Below are positions 8,757 through 39,273 of a stretch of 46,186 nt of DNA, piece by piece. A program made the translations under genes and the position numbers. Origin of the DNA: a virus; IMG/VR virus record IMGVR_UViG_3300027909_000035. One strand, written 5' to 3'. Each line of letters begins with the position of its first letter. Position 1 is the stretch's first letter. Under the pieces are notes generated by a model. That model made no database searches, was not told the origin of the DNA, and saw only the letters and a program-made list of their open reading frames with translations.

Positions 8757-10055
8757 ATGCGAAGTTTCGCAGACCGTGTGATTGATGGGGGGTTGCGTGC
8801 GCTCAGAAACCTAGCTGGTCCCCCGGTACCGTTCAGCGGTAGAAGGCAAGGCTTTTCAAGCATGTTGGACGGTGGGGACACGGGAATCATGGAGCGTGCT
8901 TACGACGCTTATGGTTCCGTGGGAACACTTTTCGCCATCGTCAGCCAGTTGGGAAACGCTTTTGCCAGTACGCAATGGCACTTGTATCGGAAAAGCTCTG
9001 TGCGAGATCTGGCACGCCGTAAGGAAGTCACCGACCACGCGCTAGTCACCGTTTGGAACCGACCGAATAGGTTCTACACGGGAAGGCTTTTCAGGGAAAC
9101 CGTTCAGCAGCACATCGATTTGGTGGGCGAGGGTGTGATCGTGCTGACGATGATTGGTAACCTTGTGGTTGAGATGTGGCCGGTTAGACCTGACCGTATC
9201 CATCCTGTGAAGCACCCAACCAAATTCCTCACTGGGTACATCTATCGTGCTGACGATGGTGAGGAAGTGCCACTCACGCTAGACCAAGTGATTCACATCA
9301 AGCTCCCGAATCCACGTGACCCCTACAGGGGCATGGGTCCGGTGCAAGCTGTGTTGGCGGACATTGACGCTGCAAGGTTCTCAGCCGCTTGGAATCGTAA
9401 TTTCTTCATCAATGGTGCCAGGCCAGGTGGCATCATCGAAGTTGATTATAAAATGAACGATACCGAATTCAATGACTTCCTCCGGCGTTGGCGCCAGCAA
9501 CATCAAGGGGTTGCCAATGCTCATCGTGTGGCAGTGCTAGAAAACGCCAAGTGGCATGATACCAATTTCTCCATGGCAGACATGCAGTTTGTCGAGTTGC
9601 GTAATCTACCAAGGGAACTGATTCGGGAAGCGTATGCGTTCCCTAAGCCAATGCTTGGCACTGTGGATGATGTCAACCGCGCGAATGCCGATGCTGGCAA
9701 AGAAGTGATGGCGGAGAACCACACGATCCCGCGCTTGGAACGTTGGTCGGACATGATTAACGCGGAGTTGCTTCCGCTGTTTAGCAATGGTCCCAATTTG
9801 GTGTTCGAACCGGATGATCCTACGCCGGTCAATCATGAAGCAAAGGACAGAGAGCGCGACAGCAAGACCAAGGGAGCGCTCAATCTCGTTAACGCAGGAT
9901 TCAATGGGTCTGATGCTGCTGAAGCTATGGGACTTCCTGAAATGCGTTGGGAGAAACTAGTTAAGGCACCACCAACAGCACCAAAACCAAGTCCGTCCAG
10001 TGAGGACAGTGATGCTGGTGCCCGTGCTGTGATCGCGCACGCCGGAACACATTAG
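8757..10055 (+). CDS. Portal protein (HK97-type family)
   Basis: Track ORF 8751..10055 (8751 is GTG; the in-frame ATG 8757 follows AAAGGGG). Size and position between terminase and protease fit a portal. Confidence 0.85.
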   Translation: MRSFADRVIDGGLRALRNLAGPPVPFSGRRQGFSSMLDGGDTGIMERAYDAYGSVGTLFAIVSQLGNAFASTQWHLYRKSSVRDLARRKEVTDHALVTVWNRPNRFYTGRLFRETVQQHIDLVGEGVIVLTMIGNLVVEMWPVRPDRIHPVKHPTKFLTGYIYRADDGEEVPLTLDQVIHIKLPNPRDPYRGMGPVQAVLADIDAARFSAAWNRNFFINGARPGGIIEVDYKMNDTEFNDFLRRWRQQHQGVANAHRVAVLENAKWHDTNFSMADMQFVELRNLPRELIREAYAFPKPMLGTVDDVNRANADAGKEVMAENHTIPRLERWSDMINAELLPLFSNGPNLVFEPDDPTPVNHEAKDRERDSKTKGALNLVNAGFNGSDAAEAMGLPEMRWEKLVKAPPTAPKPSPSSEDSDAGARAVIAHAGTH

Positions 10056-26409: not shown

Positions 26410-26581
26410 GAAATTCCTTATCGCGGCTGCCGTTGCAGCAGTGGAGATTGCCAATGTTTGGACGAACGGCCCGGACTGGCTATATGCCGCTGCACCCGTG
26501 GTTGGTGCTCTCTTGGTTTACACCGTGGGCAACGCTCCGGAGTACGCCGACCCGCGCAAGGGTGAGCATCACGTACATTAA
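26372..26581 (+). CDS. Second small membrane protein (69 aa, 2 TM), holin/antiholin-like
   Basis: ORF track. Hydrophobic segments FLIAAAVAAVEIANVW and LYAAAPVVGALLVYTVG. Confidence 0.5.
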   Translation: MMVVKNPWLSRARKFLIAAAVAAVEIANVWTNGPDWLYAAAPVVGALLVYTVGNAPEYADPRKGEHHVH

Positions 26582-26598
26582 TTGAAGAGCATAAATTG

Positions 26599-26640
26599 CT
26601 GCCTGATCATAGTTTCTGCTGGTCAGGCAGTAATCTATTT
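26599..26640 (+). terminator. Terminator of the late operon
   Basis: CTGCCTGA...TCAGGCAG 8-bp stem followed by a T-rich TAATCTATTT. Confidence 0.5.
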
Positions 26641-26648
26641 ACGTCAAG

Positions 26649-26664
26649 TGTGACGTACGTCACA
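26649..26664. promoter_or_regulatory. 16-bp perfect palindrome TGTGACGTACGTCACA (CRP/FNR-type TGTGA-N6-TCACA)
   Basis: Perfect dyad. TTGACA lies 5 nt downstream (26670..26675). A sister site is at 40479..40494. Confidence 0.6.
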
Positions 26665-26760
26665 GATCTTGACAAGTTTTTCGGCCAAGGCATACCCTCA
26701 GGGGCAAAACTGCATAGCTTAGAAGGGGGATCATGTACCCGGTACGTGGTCCCTCAGCTT

Positions 26761-26860
26761 GGGGAAGTAGCTCAGTGGTAGAGCAGATATGACCTGGTGC
26801 CCATATCGTCAAGGTTTTTGGGAAGGGACCTTGAGCTAGGTTCGATTCCTAGCTTCCCCA
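26761..26860 (+). tRNA. tRNA-like element with an aberrant, expanded anticodon/variable region (isotype undetermined)
   Basis: Perfect 7-bp acceptor stem GGGGAAG/CTTCCCC, D arm GCTC-AGTGGTA-GAGC, T arm CTAGG-TTCGATT-CCTAG, discriminator A. The 50 nt in between form two hairpins (GATATG/CATATC with a 10-nt loop; TCAAGGT/ACCTTGA with a 12-nt loop). Confidence 0.5.
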
Positions 26861-26893
26861 CTCATTAATTGATTCGAGAGGATAAACCCCAAG

Positions 26894-27676
26894 ATGAGTA
26901 AAAGGATTTCATGCCGTACCCACCACGGCGGAGTGTTCACGGTTACTGCCAAGCGTGGCAGGCCACCAGTTCGTTGTACTGAGGAAAACCCTTGCACAGC
27001 TTCAGGCGCACGCAAGCCGACCCGCGAAGAGGTTTCCGCCAAGGTGCTTGCAGCGAATGAGAAAGCTAGGAAACGGCAGGCCAAGCCAACTAAAAAGGAT
27101 TTAGCCGCTGAGCGCGCCCTTCTGGAAGCCAAGGATAACGCCTCTAGGACTGAGCAGAAGGTGAAGGGTGCCCCTACCCCTCAGGAAGGCATGAACGGCC
27201 GTCAGCTTTCACTACAGCAGGCGCAGAAGGCCAAAGCTCAGCTTGTCGAGCAAGGCTGGGAGGTCAAGGGTGAAGCGAAGGGGGACACGGTCACCGTTAC
27301 CGGCCATCGTGGTGAGGAATTGATTTGCCTGACCTGGCGTGAAGGGGTGTTGGTCAGCCAGGAATATTCCCTCTGGTCCGTTGACAAGGCTTCCCGTAAC
27401 GGCATGGTCCCGCCTCACAGCCTGCCGTTTGATCCTGAATGGGTTTCCGACAGAGAGCTTGCCGCTCATATCGTCGGCAACAAAATCACTTGGTGGAATC
27501 GGATTTCCGGCAAAGAAGAGCATGGAACCTGTGGAAAAGATACCGTTGCCATAGAGCATCGCTTCGATGGTGCCGGACATGAGATCCCCTCTGAGCGGCT
27601 GATTAAATTCAACATGGACGGTACGGGAAATATGCGCCTGGTGCAGCTAGGCCAACTTCTCAAGATTGGAAAGTGA
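26894..27676 (+). CDS. Hypothetical protein (260 aa) with an N-terminal AT-hook-like KRGRPP motif
   Basis: ORF track. First gene of the replication block. Basic N-terminal third. Confidence 0.7.
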   Translation: MSKRISCRTHHGGVFTVTAKRGRPPVRCTEENPCTASGARKPTREEVSAKVLAANEKARKRQAKPTKKDLAAERALLEAKDNASRTEQKVKGAPTPQEGMNGRQLSLQQAQKAKAQLVEQGWEVKGEAKGDTVTVTGHRGEELICLTWREGVLVSQEYSLWSVDKASRNGMVPPHSLPFDPEWVSDRELAAHIVGNKITWWNRISGKEEHGTCGKDTVAIEHRFDGAGHEIPSERLIKFNMDGTGNMRLVQLGQLLKIGK

Positions 27677-27794: not shown

Positions 27795-29726
27795 ATGACT
27801 CCAATACATATCGAGAAAAAAGGTAAGCGGATCGTCCTCAAAACGGATGGTCCGCTTCCTGGTATTCGCTCCGCGATACCTGGTGCTTATGAGTCGGCCA
27901 CAGGGCAATGGACTGTGCCCCTGAACTATGAGACATGCAAACTACTTCAAGCCAAATACAAAAAGCGTTTGCGTGTCGGCATGGAGTTACGCCGTTGGGC
28001 AACTGGTGTCCGCAACTCTCGGGACTCCATGTCCACCTTGGCTGCCTCTAAAAATGCCAAGCTCGATCACGTAAAGGATGAGGCACCCGTTCTCTTCAGA
28101 CTCATGAAGCAACGCAAGTATCAGAAGGTTGGCGCGCGTTTCGTTGCCGACAATCCCGCTACCGGTATTTTCGATGAGCCTGGTTTGGGCAAGACGTTGA
28201 TAGCCATCGGCGGAATTATCGAGGCGCAAATACCCGGACCCTACGTAGTCATTGCCCCTAAGACAGCCGCTAAGCCTGTCTGGCAGCGTGAAATCCGTCG
28301 GCTACTTCCTAGGTGGCACAAGCCGGTTACGTTCCCTGACGGATGGTCTCAACGGGATTGGAAGCTACGCCGGACAGTGATGGACGAACACACATGGATA
28401 ATCGTTCACCCGGAAATGGTCATGGTCCGGACCATGCTTATCTGCCATCGTTGCGGTAAGAGTTGCCAGCTAACCAATAAGACGAAACGCAAGTTGGCAT
28501 GCAACCACAAGAAGGATCGAAAAACCAAAAAGATTGACGTACCAACCTTCAAGCGGCTGTTCGAGATCGATTGGGGTGCAGTCATTATCGATGAATCCCA
28601 TGACAGCCTCATTCACAGAGGGAGCATCCCGACATTACGCCGCAACGGAATGGACAAGCTCAGACTTCGATCGGACGGTATCAAGCTGGCCATGTCCGGC
28701 ACGCCCATGAACAGCATGCCTCATCACCTGTGGGGTACGCTCAACTGGCTCGACCCTATTGCATATCCGGCGTTCCACCGTTGGGCGGAACTGTTCTGGA
28801 AAAAGGGTGGCTACACAGGTTGGGCTATAGGGGATTTCATCAAGGAACGTGAGCCTTTGCTATGGGACTCTTTAGCTTCCATTTCCCTTCGGCGGACGAA
28901 GCTTGAAGTTGCAAAAGATTTGCCACCCAAGATGGAAATAGGCACGCCACTCGACCCCCACGACGAAGACAGCCCAATAGGTATTTGGCTTGAGATGGAA
29001 GGGAAGCAAGCCAAGGCATACAATCAAATGTTTGAAACCTCAGTATCAGAGCTTAAATCCGGCCGGTTGATGGCGACAACCGCACTGGCTGAACTGACCA
29101 GGCTGAAGCAATTTGCAAGCTCATACGGTAACGTCACATGGCTAGACAAGGCTGACGGCACGCGCAAACAGAAGTTCTACCCTACACTTCCATCCAATAA
29201 ATTCCGTTGGGTGGTCGAGACATTGGAAGAGTGGGGGTACCCGAAAGACCCTATAGACAAAGTGGTGTTCGTCAGTTTCTATACTGGACTGCTAGAAATG
29301 TTCATGGCAGCATTGGAAAAGCATTTCAAGACCAAACCAGGTAAACCGCTATGTTCTGCAATCACGGGCAAGGTCGGCTCTTCCACCAAGCGCGCCAAGA
29401 TAATTGAACGCTTCAACAGCAGTGGCCATGAGCACCTGTTGATGCTGAATGTGAAAGCAGGCGGGACAGCAATTACAATCGACAGCGCTTCACGAACTAT
29501 TTTCCTAAGTGAGACAAGGATTCCTGACCAACAAATACAAGCAGAGGATAGGACCCACAGGGTCAGCAACCCAAGGCAATGCATGTATTACTACCTTCGT
29601 TCCCTTGGCACAGTTGACGTTGGTACCGCAATAGCTAACAAGGAACTGGCGCACGATTCATTTCGATTACTCGATGAAAGGCGGGGAGTCGAGTACCTAC
29701 GATATGTGATTGACCACAGTAAATAG
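27795..29726 (+). CDS. SNF2-family helicase/ATPase
   Basis: Motifs GLGKT, IIDESHD and AGGTAITIDSA...QAEDRTHR. Carries a Cys-rich insert CHRCGKSC...CNH. Confidence 0.85.
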   Translation: MTPIHIEKKGKRIVLKTDGPLPGIRSAIPGAYESATGQWTVPLNYETCKLLQAKYKKRLRVGMELRRWATGVRNSRDSMSTLAASKNAKLDHVKDEAPVLFRLMKQRKYQKVGARFVADNPATGIFDEPGLGKTLIAIGGIIEAQIPGPYVVIAPKTAAKPVWQREIRRLLPRWHKPVTFPDGWSQRDWKLRRTVMDEHTWIIVHPEMVMVRTMLICHRCGKSCQLTNKTKRKLACNHKKDRKTKKIDVPTFKRLFEIDWGAVIIDESHDSLIHRGSIPTLRRNGMDKLRLRSDGIKLAMSGTPMNSMPHHLWGTLNWLDPIAYPAFHRWAELFWKKGGYTGWAIGDFIKEREPLLWDSLASISLRRTKLEVAKDLPPKMEIGTPLDPHDEDSPIGIWLEMEGKQAKAYNQMFETSVSELKSGRLMATTALAELTRLKQFASSYGNVTWLDKADGTRKQKFYPTLPSNKFRWVVETLEEWGYPKDPIDKVVFVSFYTGLLEMFMAALEKHFKTKPGKPLCSAITGKVGSSTKRAKIIERFNSSGHEHLLMLNVKAGGTAITIDSASRTIFLSETRIPDQQIQAEDRTHRVSNPRQCMYYYLRSLGTVDVGTAIANKELAHDSFRLLDERRGVEYLRYVIDHSK

Positions 29727-29817
29727 CACCAGGTAAACACCATGTTGACAGCAATTCGGGCAGCCTGTAGCGTCGTTGCCCACCTGCACCAAACCGATTT
29801 TAGGAGGATGTACCCCG

Positions 29818-30528
29818 ATGGCGAAGACAAACCCCAAGGCAAGTAAAAAGCCGAAGCGTGACCCGAAACTCACTGCCCTGGCGGACAAGGAAGCCACTCA
29901 GTATCAGAAGTGGTTTGCCCGCTGGATCACTACGGAGGTTGGCTACGATCCAGCTTCGGCGGACTCGAAGAAGGCAGCCTTCCTGGCGGGTATCCGGTTG
30001 GCGCTCACGAGCCGGTCGGCCTTCATGGAAAGTGATTTCCTTGAGGAAATGCGGGAGAAGCACGGCGTTCAGAAGCGCGGTCCCAAGCCCAAGGCCAAGG
30101 ATGAGGACGACGCACCCAAGGGGAAGAAGTCGAAAAAGAAGAAGTCCAAGGATGAGGACGACGAAGAGGAAGACTTCGAAGAGGATGAGGACGAAGACTT
30201 CGAAGAGGATGATGAGGAAGAGGACGACGAAGACACAGAAGACGATGACGAGGAAGAGGACGAAGAGGAAGACGACGAAGACGAGGACGACGAAGAAGAA
30301 GAGGATGACGAGGAAGAGGACGACGAAGAGCCTGCCCCGCCTAAGAAATCCAAGGGAAAGAAGGCTGTAGCGAAGAAAGCTCCGGCCAAGAAACCCGCAA
30401 AGAAGGCTGACAAGCCTGTCAAGAAAGCCGCACCAGCAAAGAAGGCAACTTCCAAAGGGAAGAAGGCTGACACAGCCAAGAAAGGCAAGAAAAAGCCGAA
30501 GGAAGACGACGACGATTTCGTTTTCTGA
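29818..30528 (+). CDS. Poly-acidic / poly-lysine protein with an SSB-tip-like C-terminus (236 aa)
   Basis: AGGAGG RBS 10 nt upstream. A ~60-residue run of almost pure D/E (30151..30330) is flanked by K-rich segments (PAKK/AKKA repeats). The protein ends ...EDDDDFVF. Confidence 0.8.
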   Translation: MAKTNPKASKKPKRDPKLTALADKEATQYQKWFARWITTEVGYDPASADSKKAAFLAGIRLALTSRSAFMESDFLEEMREKHGVQKRGPKPKAKDEDDAPKGKKSKKKKSKDEDDEEEDFEEDEDEDFEEDDEEEDDEDTEDDDEEEDEEEDDEDEDDEEEEDDEEEDDEEPAPPKKSKGKKAVAKKAPAKKPAKKADKPVKKAAPAKKATSKGKKADTAKKGKKKPKEDDDDFVF

Positions 30529-35085: not shown

Positions 35086-35669
35086 CGCTTAACGTTGACG
35101 ACGTTTACGACAGAATCCTACGGGACAAAGCGTTTTACCATTGGCAACCTGCCAAATTGGTTCCGGGGGAAGGGTCTGAAGCTAATGCTTCCGCCTTCAT
35201 CGTGGGCAGCTCACCAAGTGCGACAGACGTTGTGAATGGCAGACCGTTCACAGATGACATTGGGGCAATCCTCCGCCAGCTCATGGAGCTTGCCAACCTG
35301 CACAGTTATTTCAATGAAGGCAAGCAATACCGGCCGAACTGCTGGCTAACCCTGGTCAGCAAATACCGATCAAGCGGTATGCCATGGGAGGCAATAGAAC
35401 TATGGCGACCCTACCTCAGACAGGAGTGGTGCGCGGTAGACAACCCAATGGTGCTCATTCCCGTTGGCATGCTGGCATTCTCAGCGTGCATGGGTGAATG
35501 GCGGGACATATCAAAGTCAGCAGGATTTCCATTCAAGCGCATGACATTCTTTGGTTGGGTGTGGGTTTGGCCTATGTTCCATCCCAAAGACGGAATCAAA
35601 TTTCCGAAGCTCCGTCCAGTCATGGAAACACATTGGTCGAAGCTAGGTGAGTGGCTTGATAACCATTAA
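35073..35669 (+). CDS. Uracil-DNA-glycosylase-superfamily-like protein (family 4/5-like)
   Basis: FIVGSSPSATDVVNGRPFTDDIGAILRQLM resembles the UDG family 4 motif region (GE.PG...G.PF.G..G..L). Sits directly upstream of PolA, as in many phages. Confidence 0.55.
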   Translation: MGGIALNVDDVYDRILRDKAFYHWQPAKLVPGEGSEANASAFIVGSSPSATDVVNGRPFTDDIGAILRQLMELANLHSYFNEGKQYRPNCWLTLVSKYRSSGMPWEAIELWRPYLRQEWCAVDNPMVLIPVGMLAFSACMGEWRDISKSAGFPFKRMTFFGWVWVWPMFHPKDGIKFPKLRPVMETHWSKLGEWLDNH

Positions 35670-36825
35670 GGATACGCTACAGGGTGACCAAATCTATTTT
35701 CACTTTGTGGAGAACAAAGACGATGCCAAACGCGCTCTGCGTTGGGCGAAACGGTTCGTCGGGCAAGAACTGGGCATGGACACAGAATCAACAGGACTCG
35801 ACTGCTACCTACCCCATTGGAGGCTGCGAACCTTTCAGATTGGTAACGACATTCGAGCATTCGTCATTCCCGCCAAGTGGCGCAAGACAATTACAAATAT
35901 CTGGTCACTCGGCATCGACTGGATTGGATACAACGGACCGCATGACGTGCGTTGTGTAGACGCGTATCTCGGCTATGAGTCCGACGTGGTTTGCAAGTAC
36001 GAGGCTTACATCACAGCTCACCATCGCGAGCCACGAAAGGCGGAGGAAGGCGGCGCAGACCTTGGACTGAAAGAGCAATGCACAGCGCATATCGATCCAG
36101 CGGCCGGTAAGTGGGAAGTGGCGCTCAAGCTTGGCTTTAAGCAACTTACGGTGCCGATGCCAGGTGAGTATTACAAATCCGGACCTCGCAAGGGACAACC
36201 CAAGGTACGCAAGGCTTTGATATCTGAAGGCTGGGCAATGCAAGACATCAAGCACCCTACCTACATTGCCTACGCTGGTGCCGACCCCATACTCACATAT
36301 CGGCTCTGGCGCTTCAATGGGACCACCTACAGTCGTGCCAATGGTTTGTACGACAGGGATTTACAAATTGACTTGCTCTGTGACCGGTTGCAACGTCGGG
36401 GCATGCTCGTAGATGTGCGGTACCTTCAGCAATACCAAGCCGCACTCACGCGGCGTGCCGACCATCTGATAGAGCTGGCAGCTGTCTTGGGTTGCAATAA
36501 CATAAATTCCGGCCAACAAATTGCCGTAACCCTTTTAGAGCTAGGCGCCAAGCTGAGACTAAAAACCCCATCCGGCAAGTGGCAAATGGATAACACGGTT
36601 CTGGAAAGCTTGGCGGAAACGGGCAACCGTCCAGTGCGGAAGTTGGTCCGCTACATACTCACGGCTAGAAGGCTCAACAAACGCGCTCAGGTTTACGCAG
36701 AGGGGATGTTGAGGGCAAGGGATAGTCAGGGCAGGGTCCACCCGTCAATCAATTCTCTAGCGGCTAGAACGGGTCGCATGAGTGCCGGTATTTTCCAGCA
36801 ACTACCGACTAAGGATCAAGAGTGA
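35647..36825 (+). CDS. Family A DNA polymerase, N-terminal gene (3'-5' exonuclease plus thumb, up to the TGR(L/M)S...LP segment)
   Basis: Exo motifs DTESTGL, NGPHDVRC and YAGADPILTYRL. Ends ...HPSINSLAARTGRMSAGIFQQLPTKDQE-stop. Confidence 0.85.
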   Translation: MSGLITIKDTLQGDQIYFHFVENKDDAKRALRWAKRFVGQELGMDTESTGLDCYLPHWRLRTFQIGNDIRAFVIPAKWRKTITNIWSLGIDWIGYNGPHDVRCVDAYLGYESDVVCKYEAYITAHHREPRKAEEGGADLGLKEQCTAHIDPAAGKWEVALKLGFKQLTVPMPGEYYKSGPRKGQPKVRKALISEGWAMQDIKHPTYIAYAGADPILTYRLWRFNGTTYSRANGLYDRDLQIDLLCDRLQRRGMLVDVRYLQQYQAALTRRADHLIELAAVLGCNNINSGQQIAVTLLELGAKLRLKTPSGKWQMDNTVLESLAETGNRPVRKLVRYILTARRLNKRAQVYAEGMLRARDSQGRVHPSINSLAARTGRMSAGIFQQLPTKDQE

Positions 36826-36974
36826 TGGAGGAAGCTATAAGACTGCTCGAATCCCTGTTCATGACAATCAAAGCCGAGCATTGGAAGAACCCGAGAGGAC
36901 AGTTAGGCGTTCTGACGGGGATCAAGATGAGCATCATGGTACTGAAAATCGCACTATCGAAGAAAGGCCAGTGA
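36825..36974 (+). CDS. Hypothetical mini-protein (49 aa), cassette ORF 1
   Basis: Hand-translated MEEAIRLLESLF... TGATG overlap with the pol N-gene and ATGA-type overlap with the next ORF. Confidence 0.4.
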   Translation: MEEAIRLLESLFMTIKAEHWKNPRGQLGVLTGIKMSIMVLKIALSKKGQ

Positions 36975-37462
36975 TGGAAATAGGTTTCACAGGGTCAAGA
37001 CACGGAATGTCGGCTAGCGCACGCGCCAAGGTGCAGGCATTGTTCATGATCCATTGGACAATAAATAGTGCCAACACACTACGCCATGGCGATTGTACGG
37101 GAAGCGATGAGGAAGCCTTCAAGATAGCCAAAGCCCTTGGATTCCTTACATACGCTTACCCCGCCTCAAACGTTAGTGAGCGTTGGCTTGCCAAGACTAA
37201 AAGTGATCTAGTCATGGTCCCCTTGCCAGCATTGGAACGTAACACAATCATCGTCAGTGAAAGCACTATCCTTATTGCAACAGTTCAGGGTTTCACATCA
37301 AATCAAGCACAAATGCGTTCCGGCACGTGGGCAACCGTTCGATACGCGAAGAAGGAAGGAATACCTTTCTGGCTTGTCAATCCATTGGGACAAGCACAGT
37401 TCTACCCGATGGCCGAACATCGTCAAAGCCTAGGCATCACAAGCCTAAATTGGAATGACTGA
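36974..37462 (+). CDS. SLOG/DprA-like Rossmann-fold protein (DUF2493-like), cassette ORF 2 (162 aa)
   Basis: GFTGSRHG...LRHGDCTGSDEEAFKIAKALG...RSGTWATVRYAKKEGIPFWLV matches the SLOG-type pattern (GxR, G..G.D, SxGT...A...G.P). Confidence 0.55.
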   Translation: MEIGFTGSRHGMSASARAKVQALFMIHWTINSANTLRHGDCTGSDEEAFKIAKALGFLTYAYPASNVSERWLAKTKSDLVMVPLPALERNTIIVSESTILIATVQGFTSNQAQMRSGTWATVRYAKKEGIPFWLVNPLGQAQFYPMAEHRQSLGITSLNWND

Positions 37463-38249: not shown

Positions 38250-38428
38250 AGCTGAAACTAGAGCTATGTGCAGGCGTTGACTGGCGTGACGTTAGAGTCA
38301 CCTCTGACCCTTCACTGCTGATCTACTGTAACCATCTGTGGTTTGACACTACCGGGTTCATACACCTTTGCTCGGACTATAAAGAGCACCCTAGAGAGCA
38401 CATATGCCAATGCTGTGAGCAATCATGA
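38246..38428 (+). CDS. Cys/His-rich small protein (60 aa), cassette ORF 7
   Basis: ORF track (GTG start overlapping the preceding TGA). Its stop overlaps the ATG of the pol C-gene. Confidence 0.45.
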   Translation: MKLKLELCAGVDWRDVRVTSDPSLLIYCNHLWFDTTGFIHLCSDYKEHPREHICQCCEQS

Positions 38429-39273
38429 AACTCCTTTCCAGTGCGGCAGTCAGGCGAGCCATCGTCGCAGAGGTTGGTCACGCCATCATCTCGTGTGACT
38501 ATGACCAAATTGAATTGCGTGTGGCAGCCGCTTTGGCAAGGGAGCAAGCACTTATAGAAGCGGCTGAGCGCGGGGAGTCTCTTCACAAGATTGCAGCCGT
38601 AAAACTCTTCGGAGAGGATTACACGCCAGACCAGTACCGCTATACCAAAAATGTCAACTTCGGTTGGCTCTATGGAGGCGGGGCATTCACGCTCTCACAG
38701 CAGGCGGGTATTCCCTTTGAAGTGGCTCAAGAAATCATCGTGCAATACCGCGAAGAATTCCCCGCGCTCACAAGGTACAAGCGCCAGCAGCAAGACAAGC
38801 TGATTCGCGGTGCACTGACCCCAAACGAATACAGGCTTTACCGCTCACTACGTTCAGAGATGTTCGAATACCGGCAAGACACTCCGTCAGGCAGGTTGGC
38901 AATAGCCAAGGTGCGGCACCGCATTAACAACCTGATGGAGTGGAAAGTCGGTTACATCACAACGGATTACGGCCGTAGGTTGCCGGTCGAATTGATGAAG
39001 GCTTACAGGGTCGTGAACTACGAAATACAGTCCACAGCAAGGGATATCATGTGTGATGGGCTGATCGCTGTCATGGCCGATCCTGAGCTAGCGTCAACCG
39101 TTCTACTTCCCATCCACGATGAATTGCTAGGCCAGGCTCCAAGGTGGAAAGCCAAGCGCGTTGCCAGACGGTACGGCGAGGTTATGAGCACCCAATTCCG
39201 AGGCGTGCCGATTACGGCTAGCGGCAAAGTGTACGGCGACTCTTGGGGACATGGATACATGAGGGCAGCATGA
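38425..39273 (+). CDS. Family A DNA polymerase, C-terminal gene (palm/fingers, motifs A, B, C)
   Basis: Motif A at SCDYDQIELRVAA, motif B at RYTKNVNFGWLYGGG, VNYEIQSTARD, motif C at LPIHDELL. Confidence 0.9.
   Translation: MKLLSSAAVRRAIVAEVGHAIISCDYDQIELRVAAALAREQALIEAAERGESLHKIAAVKLFGEDYTPDQYRYTKNVNFGWLYGGGAFTLSQQAGIPFEVAQEIIVQYREEFPALTRYKRQQQDKLIRGALTPNEYRLYRSLRSEMFEYRQDTPSGRLAIAKVRHRINNLMEWKVGYITTDYGRRLPVELMKAYRVVNYEIQSTARDIMCDGLIAVMADPELASTVLLPIHDELLGQAPRWKAKRVARRYGEVMSTQFRGVPITASGKVYGDSWGHGYMRAA

Follow-up and report, generated by a model that had tools for sequence, protein, structure and literature searches.

We describe here an element resembling a transfer RNA (tRNA) that is encoded on the plus strand of the IMG/VR virus record IMGVR_UViG_3300027909_000035, at positions 26761-26860. 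The record is 46,186 nucleotides (nt) long and the whole stretch is called the window below; it is apparently a complete contig of an uncultivated siphovirus. The element sits between the lysis cassette and the replication genes, and a gene for a protein of 260 amino acids (aa) starts 33 nt past it. We found the element, 100 nt long and in its letters exactly as first described, to be genuine and conserved: a phage look-alike of a tRNA that does not decode, and in its architecture a new variant within a loose, uncharacterised group of phage tRNA frames whose anticodon domain is replaced. Its parts are as follows.

26761..26784, plus strand: 5' acceptor strand GGGGAAG, U8 and A9, and D arm GCUC-AGUGGUA-GAGC, placed by the Rfam alignment; 22 of the 24 positions are invariant in five orthologues
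26786..26807, plus strand: hairpin in the anticodon-arm position, 6 base pairs (bp) GAUAUG/CAUAUC with the 10-nt loop ACCUGGUGCC, from the folds
26809..26834, plus strand: hairpin in the variable-arm position, 11 bp with a GGGA tetraloop, from the folds
26836..26860, plus strand: T arm CUAGG-UUCGAUU-CCUAG, 3' acceptor strand CUUCCCC and discriminator A, placed by the Rfam alignment

Written out in full, the element reads GGGGAAG-UA-GCUC-AGUGGUA-GAGC-A-(GAUAUG-ACCUGGUGCC-CAUAUC)-G-(UCAAGGUUUUU-GGGA-AGGGACCUUGA)-G-CUAGG-UUCGAUU-CCUAG-CUUCCCC-A. The tRNA body is complete, with a 7-bp acceptor stem, a D arm carrying G18 and G19, the pair C11-G24, a T arm with UUCGAUU and the discriminator A73. The sequence CCA is not encoded after it; the next letters are CTC.

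The Rfam tRNA model (RF00005) matched the element over model positions 1-71 with 47 bits, compared to a gathering score of 29 (E = 4.8e-07 for the whole window), and this was the sole Rfam hit in the 46 kb. The textbook frame of acceptor, D and T arms that an earlier note had read from the letters is thus borne out. The alignment passed over the anticodon arm, which was modelled as a 46-nt local insert. The minimum-free-energy fold consisted of the cloverleaf frame plus two hairpins in the middle, at -41.4 kcal/mol versus -30.0 +/- 3.7 for shuffled sequences (z = -3.1). The long middle in place of an anticodon arm was recovered by the model and its two hairpins by the fold, and the folds also returned the first hairpin, GATATG/CATATC with a 10-nt loop, as proposed. 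The second hairpin had been given as 7 bp with a 12-nt loop and had to be corrected: its stem runs on through one U-A pair, three U-G pairs and a closing U-A pair, so that it has 11 bp and the GGGA tetraloop.

The Rfam tRNA model was positive, while ARAGORN with default settings called neither a tRNA nor a transfer-messenger RNA (tmRNA) for the element. A permissive Rfam scan of 26550-26950 (E <= 10) returned the tRNA model only, the rest being noise, and the ARAGORN tmRNA mode was empty as well. No normal anticodon loop could be found, as the note had stated: nowhere can a 7-nt loop be drawn that has U33 together with a purine 37.

To place the element among relatives, related contigs were gathered through homologues of the 260-aa protein. 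Five distinct orthologues were found at the same site, in the window (100 nt) and in contigs L089 (105 nt), L050 (101 nt), L052 (100 nt) and L116 (96 nt). Identical copies occurred in L049, which is the phage of the window in another sample, and in L131, identical to L116. The phages that bear orthologues are related uncultivated actinophage-like phages, and their 260-aa neighbour proteins are 34-65% identical, with L116 and the window at 34%. A covariance model made from the five orthologues scored those five at 64-71 bits.

Searches that did not start from the neighbour gene yielded one of these members. The element alone as a query gave generic D-arm matches only, and a strict family pattern found nothing in the metagenome collection. 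A relaxed pattern in the same collection retrieved mostly eukaryote-type intron-containing tRNA-Ala and tRNA-Phe genes and one true relative, L116. With the same architecture at a syntenic site in four other distinct sequences, and with compensatory changes, the element is far beyond chance.

Covariation was assessed in a trimmed alignment of the five orthologues, A4, in which the loops and the extra arm were cut by hand and the stem register was taken from each sequence's own fold, as chosen by the analyst. A full-length MAFFT alignment (A3) and a model-based one (A5) misaligned the middle, and the covariation of the stem in the anticodon position rests on A4 and the single-sequence folds. 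In A4, 40 of the 50 frame columns were invariant compared to none of the 10 columns of the anticodon-position stem. All 105 pair cells held standard pairs, that is, all 21 frame and stem pairs were intact in each orthologue. Nine pairs changed on both sides, versus 4.5 +/- 1.4 in shuffles, and none of 500 shuffles reached nine. When the partners were slid by 1-3 columns as a control, only 30-52% of the cells remained paired.

The changes were unevenly spread over the structure. In the anticodon-position stem, all five pairs covaried (GAUAU/AUAUC, AACGC/GCGUU, CACAG/CUGUG, ACGGU/ACCGU and GCGAU/AUCGU). Three pairs of the T stem covaried and the T loop was invariant. Six of the seven acceptor pairs, from G1-C72 to A6-U67, were invariant in sequence, and A73 and the whole D arm were fixed. 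When ten related sequences were aligned to the model, the acceptor, D and T helices were 100% paired with 13 pairs changed on both sides; this alignment was not used for the middle, where it was misaligned. In a direct comparison of the frames of the window and L116, only 3 of 49 positions differed (about 94% identity), compared to 34% identity of the neighbour protein.

The middle is hypervariable within this near-invariant frame: its sequence, stem lengths and loop size change fast while pairing is kept. The extra arm measured 11 bp in the window, 4+9 bp with the same GGGA loop in L089, 10 bp in L050 and, across the whole set, as little as 5 bp. In L052 the middle forms a pair of hairpins of 14 bp and 5 bp with the long one in the anticodon position. 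The two-hairpin fold was the minimum-energy structure in four of the five middles folded in isolation.

These patterns indicate purifying selection acting on an RNA and not decay. In favour of a tRNA pseudogene in decay, or of a host tRNA fragment of the attP type, the same slot holds ordinary tRNAs in distant relatives, the element is absent from some close ones and ARAGORN rejects it. Stem mismatches and lost T- or D-loop bases, the marks of a pseudogene, were not seen in A4. All 21 pairs are intact in five orthologues, nine of them with compensatory changes, and the frame has stayed about 94% identical where the neighbour protein has fallen to 34%. This reading is largely refuted by the alignments and we regard it as hardly tenable. 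The decayed tRNA gene listed in the earlier note is in this way strongly argued against by the near-invariant frame and the fully paired, compensated stems. The same note had considered that relatives might carry a normal tRNA at this place with the present copy disrupted by an insertion; this was not what was found, as the close relatives have either the same aberrant design or nothing, and the normal tRNAs of distant relatives are built on an unrelated frame. An attP remnant was likewise rejected, with both tRNA halves present and no integrase among the open reading frames (ORFs) tested.

Could the element decode? The anticodon-position loop has 10 nt in the window, 8 in L089, 11 in L050, 12 in L052 and 7 in L116, and the five loops share only the motif U-R-G-(U)-S-C-M. 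A consistent U33, purine 37 and anticodon are absent across the five. In its intron mode, ARAGORN called Gly-CCC, SeC-UCA, Stop-UUA, Glu-UUC and Pyl-CUA for the five orthologues, each with a different 'intron' (position 32-38, length 4-17 nt). Of the properties of a canonical tRNA, the cloverleaf frame is therefore there, while the 5-bp stem with a 7-nt loop bearing U33 and purine 37 is not, nor is a shared anticodon or isotype. A conventional decoder is very unlikely.

Expanded anticodon loops do decode in known frameshift suppressors, and the element could in principle be a non-canonical decoder, such as a frameshift, quadruplet or quintuplet reader or a suppressor. The 8-nt loop of L089, the 7-nt loop of L116 with its U33, and a possible GGU or AGU triplet behind a U in all but one of the five loops would agree with this. 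On the other hand, frameshift-suppressor tRNAs share the enlarged loop at 8 nt, compared to 10 nt in the window and 7-12 nt among the orthologues, and the five intron-mode calls are discordant. Position 37 would be G or C after U36, where tRNAs reading ANN codons carry A37. Sites in the window complementary to the loop are no commoner than chance, and other look-alikes in the clade have loops of 4 nt and 6 nt. The non-canonical decoder offered in the earlier note is for these reasons unlikely, and we would give it very little credence. A Thr-type anticodon (GGU or AGU after U) was tried separately and rejected: L116 does not fit it, and the base at position 37 is not A.

Comparison with tRNAs that have an extra arm led to a similar result. 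As in class II tRNAs (Leu, Ser, Tyr) and tRNA-Sec, an extra paired arm stands between the anticodon and T arms, and the 7/5 geometry is that of Leu, Ser and Tyr tRNAs. However, the class II arm has about 3-7 bp compared to 10-13 bp in the element family, and the 11-bp arm of the window comes without a 7-nt anticodon loop bearing a Leu, Ser or Tyr anticodon. Class II tRNAs have a short D stem and an enlarged D loop that orients the extra arm; the D arm of the element, with a 4-bp stem and the 7-nt loop AGUGGUA, is of the class I type. A tRNA-Sec would show 8/5 or 9/4 geometry, a 6-bp D stem and a UCA anticodon, whereas the element has 7/5 geometry and the 4-bp D stem. It also does not look like an intron-containing tRNA, since there are two separate expansions, one in the loop and one in the extra arm, and the roughly 29 extra nt are too few for a group I intron.

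The extra arm and the invariant acceptor bear on a further explanation, in which a non-decoding look-alike would be charged by a synthetase blind to the anticodon, SerRS through the extra arm or LeuRS through A73, and would drain the enzyme or donate the amino acid off the ribosome. Neither SerRS nor LeuRS reads the anticodon. The invariant pairs G1-C72 to A6-U67 together with A73, the long extra arm and the presence of C11-G24 would suit such a role. Against it, the class I type D arm is unlike that of bacterial Ser and Leu tRNAs, and the discriminator is A, not the G common in Ser tRNAs. The orthologues also differ in how long the extra arm is and where it sits, the long hairpin of L052 lying in the anticodon position. 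We consider charging quite improbable.

With regard to the loop itself, we looked for possible partners. The complement of a 12-nt loop stretch, with up to 2 mismatches, occurred at 5 sites in the window, compared to 4.7 expected by chance. The best antisense candidate, a 9-nt match at 29726 by the helicase stop codon, was rejected: it concerns a promoter-proximal region, and the homologous regions of L050, L052 and L048 do not co-vary with the loops. A T-box-like pairing of the loop motif UGGUG(C/G) with the tRNA 3' end CACCA was set aside; it fits the window, L089 and L052, not L050 (UAGUCCA) or L116 (UAGCCA), and in L052 the motif is buried within the 14-bp stem.

The loop heptamer TGGTGCC was observed 17 times elsewhere on the plus strand of the window (for example at 10016, 12418, 12673, 34828 and 36276) compared to 4.3 in a codon-shuffle null, ranking 7 of 13,850 heptamers. 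On the same strand, GCTGGTGCC occurred 5 times and TGGTGGC did not occur. In L052, whose loop has TGGTGGC, the latter was seen 4 times in 7 kb and TGGTGCC was absent. No such enrichment of the loop heptamer was found in L050 and L116. The excess may reflect the NNT-GGT-GNN codon context common across the clade. A Chi-like meaning of (C)TGGTGCC was given little weight, TGGTG being common clade-wide in that context.

These observations are relevant to the idea of a tRNA-scaffolded regulatory RNA, in which the body would serve processing and stability while the hairpins, as the active part, would bind a phage or host RNA or a protein that differs between phages. A hypervariable middle in an invariant frame and a shared loop motif are what such a regulator might be expected to show, and the TGGTGCC excess, in the same sense and seventh among over-represented heptamers of the coding strand, could be counted in its favour. 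Still, a conserved antisense target was not found, neither by number (5 versus 4.7) nor at 29726, and the heptamer excess, which two of the orthologues do not share, may be codon context. A scaffolded regulator is improbable.

In some more distant members of the clade, the slot upstream of the 260-aa homologue is occupied by ordinary 73-nt tRNAs with the anticodon UAA (loop CUUAAAA) or UAG (loop UUUAGGU). They obey the position-37 rules (UAA with A37, UAG with G37), their acceptor stems vary freely and none encodes CCA. They share the position and transcript context of the element, with the 260-aa homologue downstream. They have a different frame, with the D arm GCCC-AAUGGCAGA-GGC and 7-nt loops, and are not orthologous to it. 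These slot tRNAs (L058, L063-L067, L069, L072 and L074-L076) are of class I shape despite their Leu anticodons, without the long variable arm of bacterial Leu tRNAs.

Others among these more distant members carry further aberrant look-alikes. Those with anticodon-position loops of 4, 6, 8 or 12 nt lie at L062 1617-1685 and 4074-4167, L072 2213-2287, L073 2390-2464 and L078 2015-2092, and those with long irregular hairpins at L055 1184-1278 and 3029-3151, L062 3969-4069 and L077 about 2362-2452; two of the L062 copies stand in tandem. In L055, the region 269-1500 upstream of the 260-aa homologue is about 1.2 kb without a called gene and rich in hairpins, and gave no Rfam match beyond one tRNA look-alike. 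It may hold a large non-coding RNA.

The slot is where the main rival has to be weighed. Under tRNA punctuation, the element would be a cis-acting processing signal: RNase P and the 3' enzymes would cut the transcript 33 nt before the 260-aa gene and thereby determine the 5' end, stability or translation of the messenger RNA (mRNA), while the middle drifts. A tRNA or look-alike does stand 30-100 nt upstream of the 260-aa gene in many of these phages, for example in the window, L050, L052, L089, L116, L058, L063, L066, L067, L073 and L076, and further aberrant look-alikes lie between genes of the same operon (L062 3969-4167, L055 3029-3151). RNase P recognises the acceptor/T/D body of a tRNA, not the anticodon domain, and needs shape and not sequence. 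A conserved body with a free anticodon domain is what recognition by RNase P alone would keep. However, six of the seven acceptor pairs, the D arm and the T loop are invariant in sequence, compared to the free variation of the canonical tRNAs in the slot. Passive drift would not be expected to leave the middle with such long perfect stems and a common loop motif, and close relatives have the same operon without any element. We therefore rate a processing signal as unlikely, though viable as a second choice. Since the canonical slot tRNAs vary freely in the acceptor stem and the element family is invariant in both acceptor and D arm, a partner that reads sequence is suggested, and not just a processing signal.

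Frames of a related kind were observed outside the clade. The 5' frame GGGGAAnTAGCTCAGTGGyAGAGC had 19 hits in IMG/VR, most of which, on reading the sequences, have long middles and are not normal tRNAs. Aeromonas T4-like phages carry an element of 118-122 nt that is annotated as tRNA-Val (CAC) in Aeh1 and as tRNA-Leu in PX29 and is unannotated elsewhere. The Aeh1 copy (Aeh1t001, record 96384-96505) stands alone beside rI.1 and scores 53 bits with the Rfam tRNA model. Jumbo-phage contigs have elements of 111-114 nt. Altogether, tRNA frames of 111-122 nt with middles of 50-70 nt were seen in L091 and L137 (both Aeh1), L096, L098, L092, L093, L099, L101, L103, L104 and L126, and they share the first 25 bases of the window element.

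The resemblance extends to both ends of the molecule. In the Aeromonas, jumbo and marine elements (Aeh1, PX29, L092, L099, L101, L126), the 5' frame GGGGAAGTAGCTCAGTGGTAGAGCA is identical, the T arm is canonical and the acceptor is CTTCCCC-A; like the window element, the Aeromonas and jumbo elements give a full Rfam tRNA match, have a long non-anticodon middle (111-122 nt in total) and are phage-encoded and standalone. The expansion lies elsewhere, however. In the Aeh1-type elements and L126, an anticodon stem that is normal in other respects holds an extra 50-70 nt, and the variable loop has the ordinary 5 nt (UGGUC); in the other jumbo-contig elements, the extra 60-plus nt could be located no more closely than between the D and T arms. 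The window element has an anticodon loop that exceeds the usual length by just 3-5 nt, and most of what is added there forms a 26-nt hairpin where a variable arm would be. The middles have no sequence similarity, and the hosts and phage types are unrelated. The window element belongs with these in an informal group, a phage tRNA frame with a replaced anticodon domain, having a full frame by covariance model, a middle of the wrong length and a phage genome as its source. The literature searched held no description of the element's architecture and no published definition of such a group.

Known non-decoding RNAs are more distant. The stable RNAs rnaC (species 1) and rnaD (species 2) of phage T4, 119-139 nt long, of unknown function and encoded alongside tRNA genes, are processed together with tRNAs, and rnaC ends in a T-arm-like segment GGGUUCGAAUCCC. 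They gave no Rfam tRNA match at E <= 0.01, lack a D arm, a full acceptor frame and sequence similarity to the element, and lie in a tRNA cluster and not at the start of an operon; homology was thus not found. Bacillus cereus tRNA-Other and the tRNA-like domains of the YrlA Y RNA and of tmRNA combine a partial tRNA body with non-decoding uses. In YrlA and tmRNA, the ends and connectivity are arranged otherwise and a normal D arm is lacking, and tRNA-Other is of normal size, unlike the element. A tmRNA would link its tRNA-like domain to a reading frame for a tag and to pseudoknots, and in YrlA the two ends make a Ro-binding stem while the tRNA-like module is closed at the acceptor end. In the element, the 5' and 3' ends themselves form the acceptor stem, and there was no Rfam match to a Y RNA.

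The surroundings of the element are those of an early operon. The neighbouring features, upstream to downstream, are given below.

26599..26640, plus strand: terminator-like 11-bp hairpin (loop of 10 nt) followed by a T-rich tail, at the end of the lysis cassette, read from the sequence
26649..26664, no strand assigned: perfect 16-bp palindrome TGTGACGTACGTCACA, directly upstream of the -35 box, read from the sequence
26669..26698, plus strand: promoter-like TTGACA-18 nt-TACCCT (TAnnnT type), read from the sequence
26725..26755, plus strand: leader hairpin GGGGGAUCAUGUACC / GGUACGUGGUCCCUC, ending 5 nt before the element, read from the sequence
26876..27676, plus strand: ribosome-binding site GAGAGGA and the 260-aa gene, ATG at 26894, from the ORF list; homologues P0001-P0024
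27795-29726, plus strand: SNF2 helicase gene, after the 260-aa gene, from the ORF list and synteny

A hairpin scan gave a shorter version of the terminator-like hairpin, both arms of which are conserved in L048, L050, L051 and L052 (alignment A1). The core of the palindrome, GTGA..TA.G.CACA, is invariant in six related loci, and the palindrome is probably an operator of the early promoter. The TTGACA and TA...T boxes are invariant in relatives; a sigma-70 scan did not report the site at 26669-26698. Judged from its boxes, this promoter-like site would start the transcript of the element and the replication genes.

The leader hairpin, with G-rich and C-rich arms (GGGGGA...UCCCUC), has equivalents in L048, L053, L089 and L116 and is conserved ahead of the 260-aa gene with or without a tRNA look-alike. 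It has no following U tract and is not an obvious terminator. In most relatives (L048, L050-L054, L089), an ORF of 59-96 aa lies between the early promoter and the leader hairpin; the window has none, and its promoter leads almost straight into the leader hairpin and the look-alike.

The 260-aa gene follows the element in every relative that carries one. Its protein matched no Pfam family and only PHROG 5307 (function unknown), and its AlphaFold model (predicted local distance difference test, pLDDT, 79) had no match in the PDB at E <= 0.001. A functional link between the element and this neighbour was considered and dropped, the domain and fold searches being uninformative.

As for the phage as a whole, it encodes its own DNA polymerase, primase and helicase, and an integrase was not found among the window ORFs tested. 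Its SNF2 helicase shares about 35% identity with the helicases of Gordonia, Mycobacterium, Rhodococcus and Nocardia phages. The DNA of the region had no match among 50,697 phage records.

Two further observations concern the replication genes. The DNA polymerase is encoded by two ORFs, 35647-36825 and 38425-39273, that match consecutive parts of a PHROG profile (652-988 and 994-1234), and in the roughly 1.6 kb between them is an ORF (36782-37462) whose hit is GTP-binding-like. The polymerase gene may be split or interrupted by an intein or intron, or a mobile gene may have been inserted. Just past the helicase, at 29776-30528, a 250-aa protein has a long Asp/Glu run and then a Lys/Ala-rich tail; it is highly charged, of low complexity and found in the same position in relatives.

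Taking the evidence together, we tentatively favour the reading in which the element is a gene for a tRNA-derived small RNA of about 100 nt that would act in trans as a non-decoding tRNA mimic, preferably as a decoy, although we hold this at a little under an even chance. A trans-acting mimic is favoured because conservation of the frame extends beyond its shape to its sequence. Transcription would begin at the early promoter (26669-26698), and the RNA would form the 5' portion of an mRNA that goes on into the 260-aa and helicase genes. RNase P would cut at G26761 (base -1 is U), and the 3' end would be trimmed after A26860 (A73). As no CCA is encoded, CCA would then be added, as for other tRNA genes of that kind. 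As a side effect, excision would separate the leader from the downstream mRNA.

The excised RNA would presumably adopt the L shape and, through its invariant acceptor, D and T surface, occupy a host factor that recognises tRNA bodies. In the preferred version, it would be a decoy or competitor for a tRNA-targeting toxin, a defence enzyme or a synthetase, and its fast-evolving middle would face, or owe its shape to, enzymes attacking anticodon and variable loops. Such a decoy is plausible because tRNases cutting anticodon or variable loops, and phage tRNAs countering them, are documented (PMC10264068, PMC13273310, PMC13096335).

More specifically, the element may be an RNA anti-defence decoy, whose tRNA body would be accepted by host immune or toxin enzymes while the diversifying middle acts as bait or jams them. 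This narrower claim has a rather small chance of being right. Candidate targets include tRNases of the VapC or Septu type, cutters of anticodon or variable loops, and nucleotidyltransferase toxins directed at acceptor ends. As judged from the alignments and the locus, both a decoy as the first choice and a processing signal at the start of the replication operon as the second are viable.

Several observations weigh against this preference for a decoy. The family is known from five distinct members only, and the choice of register in A4 favours pairing. The middle of L116 in isolation has no clean two-hairpin fold (z = -0.3), and in that of L052 a 14-bp hairpin with a GGCG loop is preferred, taking up the conserved loop motif. 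The element is accessory and dispensable, because the close relatives L048, L051, L053, L054 and L088 have none at the site. Finally, the decoy role is something that we purely infer.

What the family says about phage tRNA genes depends less on the choice of a target. Phage tRNA genes are now seen partly as counter-measures to tRNA-cleaving defences, and to our knowledge all examples of such phage tRNAs so far are working decoders with subtle loop changes. The present family keeps the tRNA body under strong selection and discards the anticodon; therefore, its selected function cannot be codon supply. The same idea arises independently in Aeromonas T4-like and jumbo phages, where it has been annotated haphazardly as tRNA-Val, as tRNA-Leu or not at all.

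Should these RNAs prove to be decoys, sponges or scaffolds, phages would have a new class of non-coding effector. And if processing is all they serve, they still show that a recurrent type of phage RNA is missed or mislabelled by tRNA-finding programs. Were the decoy reading true, the early-operon slot would be a hotspot at which real tRNAs for rare codons and decoys are swapped according to the arsenal of the host. In either case, the orthologues and look-alikes make up a defined set of sequences for experiments.

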